Below, one piece after another: positions 14,129 through 32,559 of a stretch of DNA of 64,000 nucleotides (positions within the stretch are counted from its first letter, which is position 1; each line of letters opens with the position of its first letter). Location: IMG/VR virus record IMGVR_UViG_3300042197_002762, positions 114,479 to 178,478 of that record, one strand, 5' to 3'. A program made the position numbers and the translations under genes. The stretch comes from a virus. Below the pieces are notes generated by a model, which saw only the letters and a program-made list of their open reading frames with translations, made no database searches and was not told the DNA's origin.

Positions 14129-15877
14129 TTATGTTACGATTTTTGGTTTTGCTGGTAATTGGTTATTTCCAGTCCAATTACAGCTTCTTGGATTGGAAGG
14201 GTCATAAAAAGTTTGACATCTTGTTGGTATTATACTATCATTTGGAAGTCTAATTCCAGCAGAAGTTGCAATACCACTTTGTTGACATTGGATTATTATT
14301 CCTGTTGGGGTAATAACTTCATAACATTTGGAGCCTGTTGGCCAACTTCCCGAGTTAAATAATTTAACAACTTTTTTAACTCTATTATTATTTTTTGTAA
14401 AACCTTTATCCCAAAGAGTTCCGAATAATTTTGCACGAGCGTCTTTTTCAGCACGATTTTTTGCTATGTATTGGGGCTCATTATATGATTTATTACTATA
14501 AGCAATTTTTTTAGAAAAGAAAGTTCCAAATAAACCATTTTCGATACTTTTATCATCAATATAATGTGTATGGGTTGTTCCATTTCCTGATAAAACTCCA
14601 GTTCCAGAAACAAAATAATTTACAGAGTAAAAATCAAATTGCAAATTATTCGAACCATAATCACCATTTTTTGTTCTTACAACTTCTATTTGAAAAGGCG
14701 TCCCACTTGGAATAATACCATTCCAAGTACCTGTATTCATTGCATCTTTTCTATAAACTGGTTCATATAATTTGTAGAAATTAGTATTTGCTAATGGAAC
14801 ATTTTGTTTAAGTCTAACTTGTTCTAAGTTTACAAATTCAACAAACGAGTTATCAGAACCACTAGTAAAACCAGAACCAGAAATAAATGTTCCGGATTCT
14901 GGGAACTTTCTATAACTTAAACCACTAAAAGCAGTATCTTCACTAGAAACAGAAATTAAACTGCCACTTCTTAATATATATACATCTCTAGTACCAACAA
15001 CTTGACCATTTTTTCCAGTTTTTGGTGCTGCATTTGGTCTTCCAGAAAGTTCAGCCCAAAATCCCGAAAAGGTTTCTACTTTATGAGGGCTTACGTAAAC
15101 AATATTTTTTGTATTTATTCCTGTACTGATTATGATTAAATCCTTTATACCAGTAGTAACATTATTACCACTCAATGAAAATATATTTTTAATTTTAGGA
15201 ACAACAACTAAATCATGCCTAAAGGCTGGAAAGGATTTGGTTTCATAAGAGTGTGGATAAGTAGCCCATCTGGCACCGCTTGGTAAATTGCCACTAGTAT
15301 TACCAACTAAAACGCCAGTTTCACCTAAACCAGAACCATATATTTTATTTTTGTTATAAGAAACTCTTGTGGTAGCAATTTTATAAAATTGAGAAAACCC
15401 TGTAGTTAACTTGAAATATCTTTCTTTTTCTCCAAATCTTATTCCGGTAACTCCAGATACTACGAAAGTTTGCTCTGGAGAAGAAGTTAAACGACTAAAT
15501 GAAGCAAAAATAGGATCATAAGGATTATCTGGATATACTTGATTATAGACAGAATAATTTAATAATTCACCATTGGTTTGAATAGAACTTTCTGATTCTG
15601 CATAAAAATAATTCGTTTGACGAATATCGGAATTTTGAATTTCAACATATTTTTCTCCATTAGCCTCTTCTGAAACTAATGTTAAAACTTGCTTTGGTTT
15701 TCTTAAAGTTCCCAAGTTGATATTTTTTATTCTTATATTTGTATAAGATAAAGGCTCTTTTGTTTTTTTATCAAAAGATATGGGTGATAAATTTTCTAAA
15801 TCTTTTTTAAGATTATCTACTTGTGAACGATCAATTAGGCCAAGGCCTAATTTTCTTCTTTTATAATTGCTATTCAT
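14129..15877 (-). CDS. putative virion structural protein
   Basis: 582 aa, rich in SG/TG like the other minus-strand tail-type proteins. Confidence 0.55.
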   Translation of the reverse strand: MNSNYKRRKLGLGLIDRSQVDNLKKDLENLSPISFDKKTKEPLSYTNIRIKNINLGTLRKPKQVLTLVSEEANGEKYVEIQNSDIRQTNYFYAESESSIQTNGELLNYSVYNQVYPDNPYDPIFASFSRLTSSPEQTFVVSGVTGIRFGEKERYFKLTTGFSQFYKIATTRVSYNKNKIYGSGLGETGVLVGNTSGNLPSGARWATYPHSYETKSFPAFRHDLVVVPKIKNIFSLSGNNVTTGIKDLIIISTGINTKNIVYVSPHKVETFSGFWAELSGRPNAAPKTGKNGQVVGTRDVYILRSGSLISVSSEDTAFSGLSYRKFPESGTFISGSGFTSGSDNSFVEFVNLEQVRLKQNVPLANTNFYKLYEPVYRKDAMNTGTWNGIIPSGTPFQIEVVRTKNGDYGSNNLQFDFYSVNYFVSGTGVLSGNGTTHTHYIDDKSIENGLFGTFFSKKIAYSNKSYNEPQYIAKNRAEKDARAKLFGTLWDKGFTKNNNRVKKVVKLFNSGSWPTGSKCYEVITPTGIIIQCQQSGIATSAGIRLPNDSIIPTRCQTFYDPSNPRSCNWTGNNQLPAKPKIVT

Positions 15878-15884
15878 TATGTTT

Positions 15885-16252
15885 AATCCGCCATCCAGAT
15901 GTCAGTTACTAACCTAAGTTCGTCCACGACCAGTGAACTACCCTAGGATTTGGGTCCGAATCTAGTAGGTCTCCGAACCAGCTCGGCAAAACTTTGTGTC
16001 TTGACTGTTGAGTGGCTCAATGCAACAATGATGTTATCGTATACTTGTTTATAATATACTTCTTTATGTCACCATAAAGGTCAGACTATATCTTCTTTCT
16101 TACGAAAGTTCGGGCGCTCGTGGGCCGTATTATTGTTGGGACTCAACAGCCTAGTCGTTACACCTTCCATCTTATCTTTCCCAGATGGCTTGGATCGGGA
16201 TTGTCTTTATTTCTAAAGAGTTTCCCCGAATTCACCCGATAACGGACTTGCT
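15885..16252 (-). ncRNA. group I intron-type ribozyme (IA-like, with P7.1), stand-alone and possibly circularly permuted
   Basis: Minus strand: P3 TCGGGTG/CGCCCGA, P4 TCGGGG/TCCCGA, P5 TCTTTA-GAAA-TAAAGA, R GGTGTAACGACTAG, S AAGATATAGTC (P7 GACTA/TAGTC), P8 CTTTC-GTAA-GAAAG, P9 CTTTATG-GTGA-CATAAAG. Confidence 0.88.
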
Positions 16253-16330
16253 AAAATTTTAAAGAACTATTTATTATTACACATTATTTTTTAAATAGAC
16301 TTAAATTTTAAATTAAAGTATAATAAAATT

Positions 16331-16591
16331 ATGATCGCAGAAATATTTGGAATAATAATGACATTAAGTTTTATGTTGTGTTATCTTCCTCAAATTGTTA
16401 AAATTTATAAAAATAAATCATCAGAAGGCGTATCTTTAATGCTTGTAATTATGTGCATAATTGGGTATATATCTGGGATGATATATATGTTTTTAACCCA
16501 GTTTGGAATTTGGTGGTTTGCAAATTATTCTGTTGGGTTAATAATGTGTATAATACTTGTTTATGCTTGGTTTAAATTTGCAGAAAAATAG
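16331..16591 (+). CDS. PQ-loop / SemiSWEET-like membrane protein
   Basis: CYLPQIVKIYKNKSSEGVS motif and three TM helices. Confidence 0.8.
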   Translation: MIAEIFGIIMTLSFMLCYLPQIVKIYKNKSSEGVSLMLVIMCIIGYISGMIYMFLTQFGIWWFANYSVGLIMCIILVYAWFKFAEK

Positions 16592-16594
16592 TTT

Positions 16595-16668
16595 GGGGGA
16601 TTGTTGTAATGGTAGCGAGCGGCCTTTACACGGCTGAAGCAGGAGTTCGATTCTCTTATCCCCTACCA
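16595..16668 (+). tRNA. tRNA-Val(TAC)
   Basis: Acceptor GGGGGAT/ATCCCCT, loop TTTACAC, T-arm AGGAG-TTCGATT-CTCTT, encoded CCA. Confidence 0.9.
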
Positions 16669-16706: not shown

Positions 16707-17243
16707 ATGACCACTATTTTAAAAGAATATATCATTAAGGATAAACATGGAAAGAGCCGTAGTCATGTTGATTTTAAATGTGATTTTTGTTCTAAAAAAC
16801 ATACTAAAGAAAAAAGATTAGTTAAAAATAATAATTTTTGTTCAGTTTTATGTTCCAATAATTTTAGATATAAAGATGTAAAAAAAATTAAAACAAAATG
16901 CGCATATTGTAAACAAGATATTATTCGAAGTCCATCTAAACATCGAGCTAAGTCTGGTTTATGTTTTTGCTCTAAGAAATGCAAAGACGAAGGTCAAAAA
17001 ATTAAAAACAATATACAAGATGTTTGGCCATCTCATTATGGTTTGGCAAATGGTTTCCATTCTTACAGAAAACTAGCTTTATCTCATTATGAAAAAAAAT
17101 GTGCAAAATGTGGATATAAAAAAATTCCAGATATTTTACAGGTGCATCATATAGATCATAATCGAAGCAATAATGATATTAATAATTTACAAATTTTATG
17201 CCCTAATTGTCATTCTATAGAGCATTTGTGTAAAAAAGATTGA
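16707..17243 (+). CDS. HNH endonuclease with N-terminal Zn-ribbon repeats (free-standing homing type)
   Basis: CxxC..VHHIDHNRSNN..NL..LCPNCH motif and several CxxC/FCSxxC motifs. Confidence 0.88.
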   Translation: MTTILKEYIIKDKHGKSRSHVDFKCDFCSKKHTKEKRLVKNNNFCSVLCSNNFRYKDVKKIKTKCAYCKQDIIRSPSKHRAKSGLCFCSKKCKDEGQKIKNNIQDVWPSHYGLANGFHSYRKLALSHYEKKCAKCGYKKIPDILQVHHIDHNRSNNDINNLQILCPNCHSIEHLCKKD

Positions 17244-17341: not shown

Positions 17342-17414
17342 GGGGGTGTAGCTCATCTGGTAGAGCAGGACCTTTGCAAGGTCAAGGTAGCAGGTTCGAA
17401 CCCTGTCACCTCCA
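17342..17414 (+). tRNA. tRNA-Ala(TGC)
   Basis: Acceptor GGGGGTG/CACCTCC with G3:U70; loop TTTGCAA. Confidence 0.92.
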
Positions 17415-17419
17415 TAAAA

Positions 17420-17501
17420 GCTCAAATGGCGAAACTGGCAGACGCGACAGACTTAGGATCTGTTTCCGTAAGGAGTGTGGGTTCAACTCCCTCTTTGAGC
17501 A
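17420..17501 (+). tRNA. tRNA-Leu(TAG)
   Basis: Acceptor GCTCAAA/TTTGAGC, loop CTTAGGA, long variable arm. Confidence 0.92.
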
Positions 17502-28441: not shown

Positions 28442-29058
28442 ATATTTTAATATTAGGTGGCACACAAATGATTGGTAAGGATTTTACTAATCTTTTAATT
28501 ACTAATAATAAAAATTATAAAATAATTATAGCGAATCGTGGGCTAACAAGGCCAGATTTATTTCCTAATATACCTCATGTTAAAATAGATAGAAACATAG
28601 AGTCAACATGCCAAGTGTTATCCAATTATAATTTTGATATTGTGGTTGATTTTTCATGTTATACCGTAGATCAATTCAGTAATACATATAAATATTTAAA
28701 ATATAATAAGTATATTTATATATCTACAATGTCCGTACATGAAAAGCATATTATAAATAATCTTGATTTAAATAATAATTATCATAGATATTGTATAGGT
28801 AAATATCTAATTGAAGAATTTATATTTAACAATAAAATAAGAAATTGCTTAATTATAAGGCCTTGTGCGATTTATGGCGAGGATGATTATACAAATAGGT
28901 TTTATAAGAAAGATGGTGAGTATTATTGGAAATCGAATAACTCTAAAGTTGGAACTGGAACAATGTTTGTAAAAGATTTCTCTAAATTACTTAGCTATCA
29001 TATACATAGCTACCCAGAAATTGGTGCTATAGATGTTTGTGAAAAATGGTGGACGTGA
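28438..29058 (+). CDS. NAD-dependent epimerase/dehydratase (atypical SDR)
   Basis: ILILGGTQMIG, YIYIST, YxxxK and IIRP..IYG motifs. Confidence 0.8.
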   Translation: MNILILGGTQMIGKDFTNLLITNNKNYKIIIANRGLTRPDLFPNIPHVKIDRNIESTCQVLSNYNFDIVVDFSCYTVDQFSNTYKYLKYNKYIYISTMSVHEKHIINNLDLNNNYHRYCIGKYLIEEFIFNNKIRNCLIIRPCAIYGEDDYTNRFYKKDGEYYWKSNNSKVGTGTMFVKDFSKLLSYHIHSYPEIGAIDVCEKWWT

Positions 29059-29481
29059 GGAGAGTTGAACTCCTGTCCATTTAATTTACATTAAAAAGTC
29101 TACATGTTTAAGTGTTTTTGGTATTTGGTTGGCTAAAGGTTACCTTGGTACACTAACCTATCTTTTAAAGCCTACCTATGCAGAGAACATTCTGCATAAT
29201 GTTCAACAATTATTTTTACAATTAAGTTGACTTCATAAACCTATTGCAGTTCCAACGCTTTTAATAGGATCCAGACATTGGTTCTTAGGCAGCCATCAAG
29301 TATTCTTCTTCAACACCGCCGAGAAACTCGTCGGAGTTATTGAAGATGTACTCAGCTTCTGCCAAGATCGAGTCAGTATTATCTTCTGCTCTTAATTTTT
29401 TAATCGATTTTTTACGAGGCCATCGATTAACCTCGACATGCGTTTTTAATTTCAACCAAATGTCGAAACCAGTACACGCCC
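29047..29481 (-). ncRNA. ssrA: tmRNA
   Basis: 5' GGGCGTGTACTGGTTTCGAC, 3' GGAGTTCAACTCTCC-T-CACGTCCACCA with G3:U; internal tag frame ending LMAA*. Confidence 0.95.
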
Positions 29482-29576
29482 AAAATTTCAAAGATCTACC
29501 TATTTAGATAGTAATATTTATTACACAATTTGTCAATATTTTTATATTTATATTTTATATTACTTATAATTAAAGA

Positions 29577-32501: not shown

Positions 32502-32559
32502 AAAGTGTTGACAAACTTATAAAATAAGTGTATAAAAGTAATAGTTCTTTGAAAACAAT

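Follow-up and report, generated by a model that had tools for sequence, protein, structure and literature searches.

A group I ribozyme in a phage leader, predicted to target the 3' end of that leader

The stretch of DNA analysed here (the window) comprises 64,000 nucleotides (nt) of a virus, positions 114,479 to 178,478 of IMG/VR record IMGVR_UViG_3300042197_002762, and the element in question is a group I ribozyme encoded on its minus strand, just upstream of an open reading frame (ORF) of 582 amino acids (aa). Positions are those of the window and descend along the transcript. I propose, with a probability of roughly 0.58, that this is a domesticated ribozyme and not an intron: its substrate helix P1 would be split between the two ends of the RNA, and the ribozyme would cut its own leader near the AUG of the ORF and could circularize the spacer enclosed between its splice sites. 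The predicted transcript runs from boxA through guide, core, terminal G and spacer X to a target strand ending in U and, last, the AUG. An earlier note on this DNA had described a stand-alone group I ribozyme without an upstream exon, and in this it is borne out, since the Rfam group I model RF00028 matches the native sequence at 16062-16295(-) with 69.6 bits (gathering score, 50), a putative promoter and a boxA lie upstream, and nothing is interrupted. The features it had listed, namely the leader, the core, a nine-pair helix between the RNA ends, a hairpin and the terminal G16026, are all present where it placed them, but the helix and the hairpin are read differently below.

The match is the only one to RF00028 in the whole virus record, a 178,478-bp contig with terminal repeats. 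The ribozyme sits in a 453-nt gap between divergent neighbours, a PQ-loop gene (16331-16591(+)) and the 582-aa ORF. A search of this gap for a split ORF, frame or RNA gene around the ribozyme found none, so the interrupted gene and rejoined exons that mark an intron are missing. A 431-nt stretch of the locus folds better than its shuffled versions (z = -3.5), and its minimum-energy fold is closed by the helix between the RNA ends, hereafter the terminal helix.

By sequence, the element has what defines a group I ribozyme: a P3-P9 core containing the P3/P7 pseudoknot, in which P3 starts at 16239, a guanosine-binding P7 with the joining regions J6/7 and J8/7, a G.U pair in P1, and a terminal G. 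Comparison with homologs from metagenomes supports this fold. When 57 core pairs were followed through 11 homologous sequences, 97.4% of the cells were paired and 17 pairs had changed on both sides, while P7 was invariant. In a sequence-level comparison, P7 (GACUA/UAGUC), AAGGUGUAACGACUAG and AAGAUAUAGUC match those of splicing relatives and hardly vary within the family; one member (L218) deviates slightly, with compensatory changes in P7.

The conservation extends to the terminal helix, in which 16248-16240 pairs at nine of nine positions with 15893-15885. Among eight distinct versions of this helix, 65 of 72 cells were paired, versus a mean of 48.5 when the 3' strands were permuted, and 12 of 40320 permutations reached 65. 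The pairing to which the earlier note had drawn attention is thus real and under selection, but its interpretation as a P2 opened at its loop does not stand. The helix reads as a P1 formed between both ends of the RNA, because it holds an invariant G.U pair with covarying neighbours and because the strand carrying the G is joined straight to P3. The second pair of the helix, G16247.U15886, is G.U in 19 of 19 copies, a count that is partly by construction in nine distant members, whose substrate sites were picked by complementarity. The pair next to this wobble (position +1) is U-A in 6 copies, G-C in 6, A-U in 3, C-G in 2 and G.U in 2, and the pair just past the splice site is A-U, U-A or C-G in 13 of the 19. 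The wobble G precedes P3 by 7-8 nt and belongs to the strand that runs on into it, which is the orientation of an internal guide sequence. Since the sites of the distant members had been chosen by complementarity, a control was run in which own and foreign guides were compared: in 15 of 17 copies, a strict four-base complement of the copy's own guide was present at most 48 nt upstream of the AUG, versus 13 of 119 for the guides of other copies. The P3-proximal pairs of the terminal helix are weak, and G15892 and G15891 can alternatively pair with C15968 and C15969, where C-G to U-A covariation is found in L219 and L221. The working P1 is therefore taken to consist of five pairs, followed by a UUA linker to P3. 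In two relatives (L062, at about 6050-6025(-), and L204), a long spacer holds a second copy of the target (UAGCGGAU↓U, the arrow marking the site of splicing or cleavage), which lies 68 nt downstream of the terminal G in a local hairpin; this copy is a possible alternative cut site.

The predicted 3' splice site after G16026, as assigned in the earlier note, agrees with the canonical relatives, which end in the same CGAUAACA-N4-6-UG↓ context, and G16026 is invariant in the family. In two canonical relatives (L086 and L120), the reading frame of the capsid gene continues directly behind the terminal G. The 3' end of the T4 td intron is similar. On the transcript, G16026 comes before U15886; that is, the 3' splice site lies upstream of the 5' splice site on one RNA, the arrangement of permuted and self-targeting systems. 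Back-splicing of the intervening RNA is therefore the chemistry to be expected, a point on which the earlier note was right. The coordinates of the features are collected in Table 1.

Table 1. Features of the ribozyme module in the window, in transcript order (all on the minus strand; splice sites, P1 and P10 are predicted)
Feature	Positions	Strand	Basis or remark
GTGTAAT, putative promoter-like (-10-like) motif	16276..16282	-	kept upstream of boxA in nearly all family members
Putative boxA-like antitermination signal AGUUCUUUAAAA (DNA AGTTCTTTAAAA)	16257..16268	-	at or near the RNA 5' end; conserved in the family
Candidate P10 guide GCAA	16248..16251	-	directly 5' of the wobble G; complementary to UUGC 16025-16022
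P1 internal guide strand GUCCG, wobble G = G16247	16243..16247	-	UUA 16242-16240 links the guide to P3
Catalytic core P3, P4, P5, P6/6a, P7, P7.1/7.2, P8, P9, P9.1 and conserved CGAUAACA (16039-16032)	16032..16239	-	RF00028, pair conservation
Terminal G (omega G); predicted 3' splice site between 16026 and 16025	16026	-	first G after CGAUAACA-N4-6 (A/U-rich) in every member
Spacer X, 140 nt, predicted circle	15886..16025	-	between the 3' and 5' splice sites
Conserved sub-domain of X	15895..15965	-	PX1 15965-15956/15905-15895; PX2 15946-15942/15918-15914; PX3 hairpin 15937-15923, UGGUC loop
P1 substrate strand CGGAU; U15886 precedes the predicted 5' splice or cleavage site	15886..15890	-	pairs with 16247-16243
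8-nt mRNA leader and start codon (AUG 15877-15875)	15874..15885	-	downstream of the predicted cut
582-aa ORF downstream of the ribozyme	14129..15877	-	conserved N-terminal (R/K)KLGLG motif

The position of the predicted cut relative to the start codon is a trait that most copies share. The distance between them is 8 nt in the window and 2-13 nt in 13 of the 19 copies, and a cut beside the AUG may be the outcome on which selection acts. In addition, 15880-15874 is complementary to 16031-16025, which bridges the 3' splice site. Bridging complementarity of this kind, often covering the AUG, is found in most lineages with differing sequences (AUGUU/AACAU, AUUGAU/AUCAAU, AUGAU/AUCAU, AAUUGGACU/AGUC-U-UAAUU); it is not significant in any single one of these A/U-rich sequences, being equalled in 72 of 300 to 221 of 300 shuffles and, at best, in 25 of 300 (L003). 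Judging from this pattern, the start codon may stay masked as long as the ribozyme has not reacted.

By contrast with the core, the spacer between the two splice sites varies, its length ranging from 64 to 192 nt across the family. In the window, its 5' part is made of variable hairpins, while its 3' part (15973-15894) is a pseudoknot-like domain that is conserved in the window's clade only. In an RNAalifold analysis with pair counts, 98% of the cells of this sub-domain were paired versus 82% after shuffling and 24-46% in slid controls, and 11 of its 21 pairs had changed on both sides. Its outer helix PX1, which encloses PX2 and PX3, pairs CUGAC(A)UNUGG with CYAGAUUCGG in 12 of 12 sequences and has three covarying pairs. 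A covariance model of the sub-domain found one copy in its own genome and none in 100 other phage loci, most of them with related group I introns; it matches only the window's clade, and no relative of the sub-domain is known. In the distant members, the spacer is 64-77 nt long and consists of one or two plain hairpins. Given this variability, the circle, if made, would have no family-wide, sequence-specific role. As a separate observation, the 5' strand of P7.1 (GGCUGUUGAGU, 16151-16141(-)) is complementary over 11 bp to ACUCAACAGUC (16013-16003(-)) near the start of the spacer, and in L222, L224 and L225 the motifs GACGAUU and AAUCGUC stand at the corresponding places. This complementarity could reflect a competing pairing that inactivates the ribozyme, or be left over from the origin of the spacer.

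On the 5' side, the ribozyme is preceded by putative signals of a transcript start. GTGTAAT is conserved 7-8 nt 5' of the boxA, except that L227 and L228 have a 30-nt hairpin insertion separating the motifs. Throughout the genome, 26 of 79 copies of GTGTAA lie 8-30 nt upstream of ORF starts, versus 0-1 of about 70 for control hexamers, and a Shine-Dalgarno-like 4-mer was found for only 20 of the 125 long ORFs of this phage genome. Because GTGTAA is enriched before start codons and Shine-Dalgarno-like 4-mers are few, I infer that GTGTAAT is a -10-like promoter element and that the mRNAs of this phage mostly have short leaders or none. L218 has a consensus promoter (TTGACT-17-TATAAT) that ends about 30 nt before P3. 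The combination of GTGTAAT with GUUCUUUAA was also considered as a single promoter or as an RNA pairing partner, and was rejected: it is unique to this site in the genome, and the hairpin of L227 and L228 splits its motifs.

The boxA-like sequence ends 9 nt before the terminal helix and, at the sequence level, is what is expected in the leader of an untranslated RNA; it resembles the boxA of the ribosomal (rrn) operons of E. coli and B. subtilis. The pattern AGWTCTTTRAAA has three matches in the window versus 0.22 expected, and all three precede non-coding RNAs. The two others, AGATCTTTGAAA at 29486-29497(-) and AGTTCTTTGAAA at 32543-32554(+), each stand behind a TTGACA-17-TAxxxx promoter. One is directly 5' of the phage transfer-messenger RNA (29047-29481), and the other is directly 5' of a cluster of non-coding RNA and tRNA, where some 340 nt without annotation extend from it to tRNA-Met (32905). 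The phage thus seems to mark its untranslated RNAs for antitermination. With the putative promoter and boxA immediately 5' of the ribozyme, no space is left upstream for a 5' exon, for P1 as a hairpin or for P2. No 5' exon was found upstream in related genomes either: what lies there is the putative promoter and boxA, and the genes beyond are on the opposite strand or differ from relative to relative.

The 582-aa ORF, whose product matched nothing in Pfam or PHROG, has 45 homologs in metagenomes, and all 18 distinct homolog genes with readable upstream DNA carry the ribozyme. An IMG/VR search with the protein alone returned no close relatives, and a pattern scan of metagenomes added one copy. 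In total, 19 distinct copies of the ribozyme module were found, spread over at least 16 contigs or records. Near relatives are L002 (partial), L003, L062/L204, L219, L221, L222, L224, L225/L229, L226, L227 and L228; distant ones, with proteins 25-33% identical, are L205-L211, L213 and L232. While the linked proteins are overall only 25-50% identical, the ribozyme cores are 74-91% identical to the window core; for the cores of canonical introns with this P7 motif, the identity to it is 70-77%. RF00028 gives 69.6-76 bits in the window and eight distinct relatives (10 loci). For the cores of L206, L207, L208, L210, L211, L213 and L232, it reports nothing at E up to 0.001 despite their 74-82% identity to the window core, and surveys based on RF00028 therefore undercount the family. 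In L218 (5860-6249(+)), the ribozyme precedes a lysine-rich ORF of 129 amino acids that lies outside the 582-aa family, so the module occurs with more than one gene. A single 147-kb contig (IMGVR_UViG_3300042507_006854; L204, L207, L210) holds three ribozyme and paralog modules within about 25 kb; the module has thus been duplicated together with its gene, and one phage can hold three. Beside the locus in the window, a free-standing HNH endonuclease ORF (16707-17243(+)) lies between tRNA-Val (16595-16668) and tRNA-Ala/Leu (17342-17501), a neighbourhood that recurs in L003.

From these comparisons I infer catalysis, cleavage and circle formation, in the following order. Transcription would start at the GTGTAAT-type promoter and place the boxA antitermination signal in the leader. 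The guide GUCCG at the 5' end of the RNA would pair with CGGAU 8 nt before the AUG, forming P1 across both RNA ends. In the first step, a GTP bound in P7 would attack after U15886 and free the mRNA with a new 5'-G and a leader of 8 nt here, or 2-13 nt in most copies. In the second, the 3'-OH of U15886 would attack after G16026 and be joined to U16025, which would yield a 140-nt circle (16025..15886) with the junction ..GGCGGAU↓UUGCAUUG.. and release the linear ribozyme. Before the cut, pairing between the start-codon region and the 3' splice-site region would hold back translation until the ribozyme has reacted. An mRNA with a leader of 2-13 nt fits a phage that mostly lacks Shine-Dalgarno sites and has genes 8-30 nt behind GTGTAA. 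The chemistry is feasible, because an engineered Tetrahymena construct with the order guide, ribozyme, insert, target circularizes its insert and P1 alone is sufficient (PMC10457212). A bolder reading, which I hold tentatively and at somewhat less than even odds, is that the element is a natural self-targeting module present in up to three copies per genome, in which one GTP-dependent reaction would yield both a near-leaderless, 5'-G-tagged mRNA of a conserved late-type gene and a small circular RNA while acting as a translation switch. It would then be the first natural stand-alone circularizing group I ribozyme.

Several points weigh against the reading of the element as a ribozyme that targets its own leader, the partly built-in G.U pair of the distant members among them. 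As modelled, P1 is tied to P3 by only about 3 nt, without a P2, which is unusual for group I RNAs. P10 amounts to only 2-4 bp in relatives and its register is not unique; when all registers between the start of the 3' exon and the end of the guide were scanned, the expected one scored 18 and a neighbouring one 26. In 6 of the 19 copies, the AUG is 24-40 nt from the predicted cut, and the making of leaderless mRNA is therefore not the whole story. A function of the circle conserved across the whole family is doubtful because the conservation of spacer X is limited to the window's clade. Finally, a tblastn search of cultured phages returned no carrier of the element.

Some of these points bear on the alternative that survives best, namely that only the first step takes place: GTP attack or hydrolysis after U15886 would set the mRNA 5' end, the terminal G would be kept for folding, and no circle would form. 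The cut site that hugs the start codon in most copies, the lack of family-wide conservation of X and the weakness of P10 are all as this alternative predicts. However, the first G after CGAUAACA is invariant and has the same spacing as in splicing relatives, and the engineered analogue reaches the second step with P1 alone (PMC10457212), so that I regard arrest after the first step as rather unlikely, though it has to be reckoned with. It is improbable that the RNA is a non-catalytic structured leader, in which the core of a former intron would serve as a stable, boxA-protected 5' untranslated region (UTR) and control translation or mRNA stability through the terminal helix, with no cleavage. 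The terminal helix and the bridging complementarity would indeed sequester the start-codon region, but P7, J8/7, J6/7 and the terminal G are invariant, the cores are far better conserved than the linked proteins, and a mere clamp would not need an invariant G.U at a fixed distance from P3.

Far less credible is the model of the earlier note, in which the core was permuted in the loop of P2, the hairpin GUUAG-UAA-CUGAC was P1, and splicing after U15911 gave a 115-nt circle (16025..15911). The hairpin does exist in the window and in L002, and UUGC is able to pair with GUAA as the P10 of that model. It is not conserved, however: its wobble pair, U15911.G15903, is A.G in L227 and L228, the neighbouring pair is C.A in L003 and L062, and the short-spacer members have no such hairpin at all. 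Moreover, CUGAC (15905-15901), instead of being a P1 strand, is the 3' strand of PX1, where it pairs with UUCGG in the helix held in 12 of 12 sequences, the extension of which covaries. The proposed P10 falls together with the hairpin. The P1 target being CGGAU ending at U15886 and not the hairpin at U15911, the predicted circle is the 140-nt one. That the element is an ordinary intron or a truncated relic with its 5' exon and P1 upstream can practically be dismissed, for although the Rfam alignment puts P1 in A/U-rich upstream DNA, this placement of P1 and P2 varies between homologs and was rejected (the upstream P1 differs between the window and L003 and is absent in L062, L219 and L222), the region is occupied by the putative promoter and boxA, and the arrangement is kept in 19 copies with different upstream genes.

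The group I ribozymes known from nature are almost all introns, with few exceptions: GIR1, one riboswitch-gated UTR ribozyme and one back-spliced coral mitochondrial intron. The element described here has an intact splicing core that appears rewired to target the 3' end of its own leader, in an arrangement kept through long divergence of the linked gene (proteins down to 25-30% identical) and multiplied within genomes. If active, it would be a natural precedent for the self-targeting circularization designs now used for circular RNA, a new phage route to an mRNA 5' end and to translation gating, and a compact, P2-less scaffold for engineering with a core of about 215 nt. Models built for finding introns mislabel such elements when used alone and sometimes miss them entirely.

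The closest natural relatives of the ribozyme are the canonical td-like phage group I introns with P7.1/P7.2 (L086, L120, L169, L188 and L092, in capsid and other genes), which have the same core, P7, J8/7 and 3' end CGAUAACA-N-UG↓. They differ in that they interrupt genes and have a closed P1 hairpin, an upstream exon strand, and a P2 hairpin followed by GCAAA before P3. The ribozyme of the window, by contrast, has its exon strand downstream of the terminal G, no P2 and no interrupted gene, and thus neither the upstream 5' exon strand nor the loop L1 of an intron.

Two other group I ribozymes act in the 5' region of an mRNA. An allosteric one is reportedly located behind a c-di-GMP-II riboswitch in a 5' UTR of Clostridioides difficile (Lee et al. 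are said to have described it in 2010). Like the element here, it is a group I ribozyme harnessed in a 5' UTR that sets the mRNA 5' region near the start codon and is not selfish. It splices conventionally, however, with an upstream 5' exon and a known aptamer as its gate, whereas the present ribozyme has another topology and no riboswitch family matched next to it in an Rfam search, which sets it apart from the riboswitch-gated class. The GIR1 or lariat-capping ribozymes of twin-ribozyme introns are eukaryotic, lie inside another intron and form a 3-nt lariat by branching; their core, marked by a three-way junction and branching nucleotides, has lost P1 and the terminal-G chemistry. They share with the present element a group I ancestry, a place just upstream of an ORF, paired 5' and 3' ends and the creation of an mRNA 5' end, the last being predicted here. 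Yet RF01807, the GIR1 model, had no match over 15700-16450 even at E up to 10, and the core here is a standard splicing core with P1 and terminal G present.

Back-splicing itself has natural and engineered precedents. The ND5-717 intron of mushroom-coral mitochondria is a natural back-spliced group I intron (Chi et al. 2019, PMC6545197), and engineered permuted intron-exon (PIE), cis-splicing and "self-targeting and splicing" (STS) systems circularize RNA (PMC11417360, PMC10457212). In the PIE constructs and ND5-717, as here, the 3' splice site precedes the 5' splice site and the product is a circular exon. The PIE constructs split the core in a peripheral loop, whereas here the core is unbroken and only P1 is split; ND5-717 is a normal intron whose transcript is permuted on a circular genome and restores the ND5 mRNA, whereas here no gene is restored. 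The circularly permuted group II introns of bacteria, which circularize a short RNA by back-splicing (Roth et al. 2021, PMC8637638), are likewise natural rearranged self-splicing ribozymes, but belong to another ribozyme class with another chemistry and are permuted between domains. A full-text literature search returned no group I ribozyme of bacteria or phages that is natural and either stand-alone or self-targeting. The nearest match in design is the engineered STS Tetrahymena construct of 2023 (PMC10457212), whose transcript has the same order as the one predicted here: guide, ribozyme, terminal G, insert, and a target ending in U. The STS construct is man-made and its mRNA is the insert that is circularized, whereas in the natural phage element the insert is a non-coding spacer of 64-192 nt and the mRNA would be the downstream piece that is cut off.
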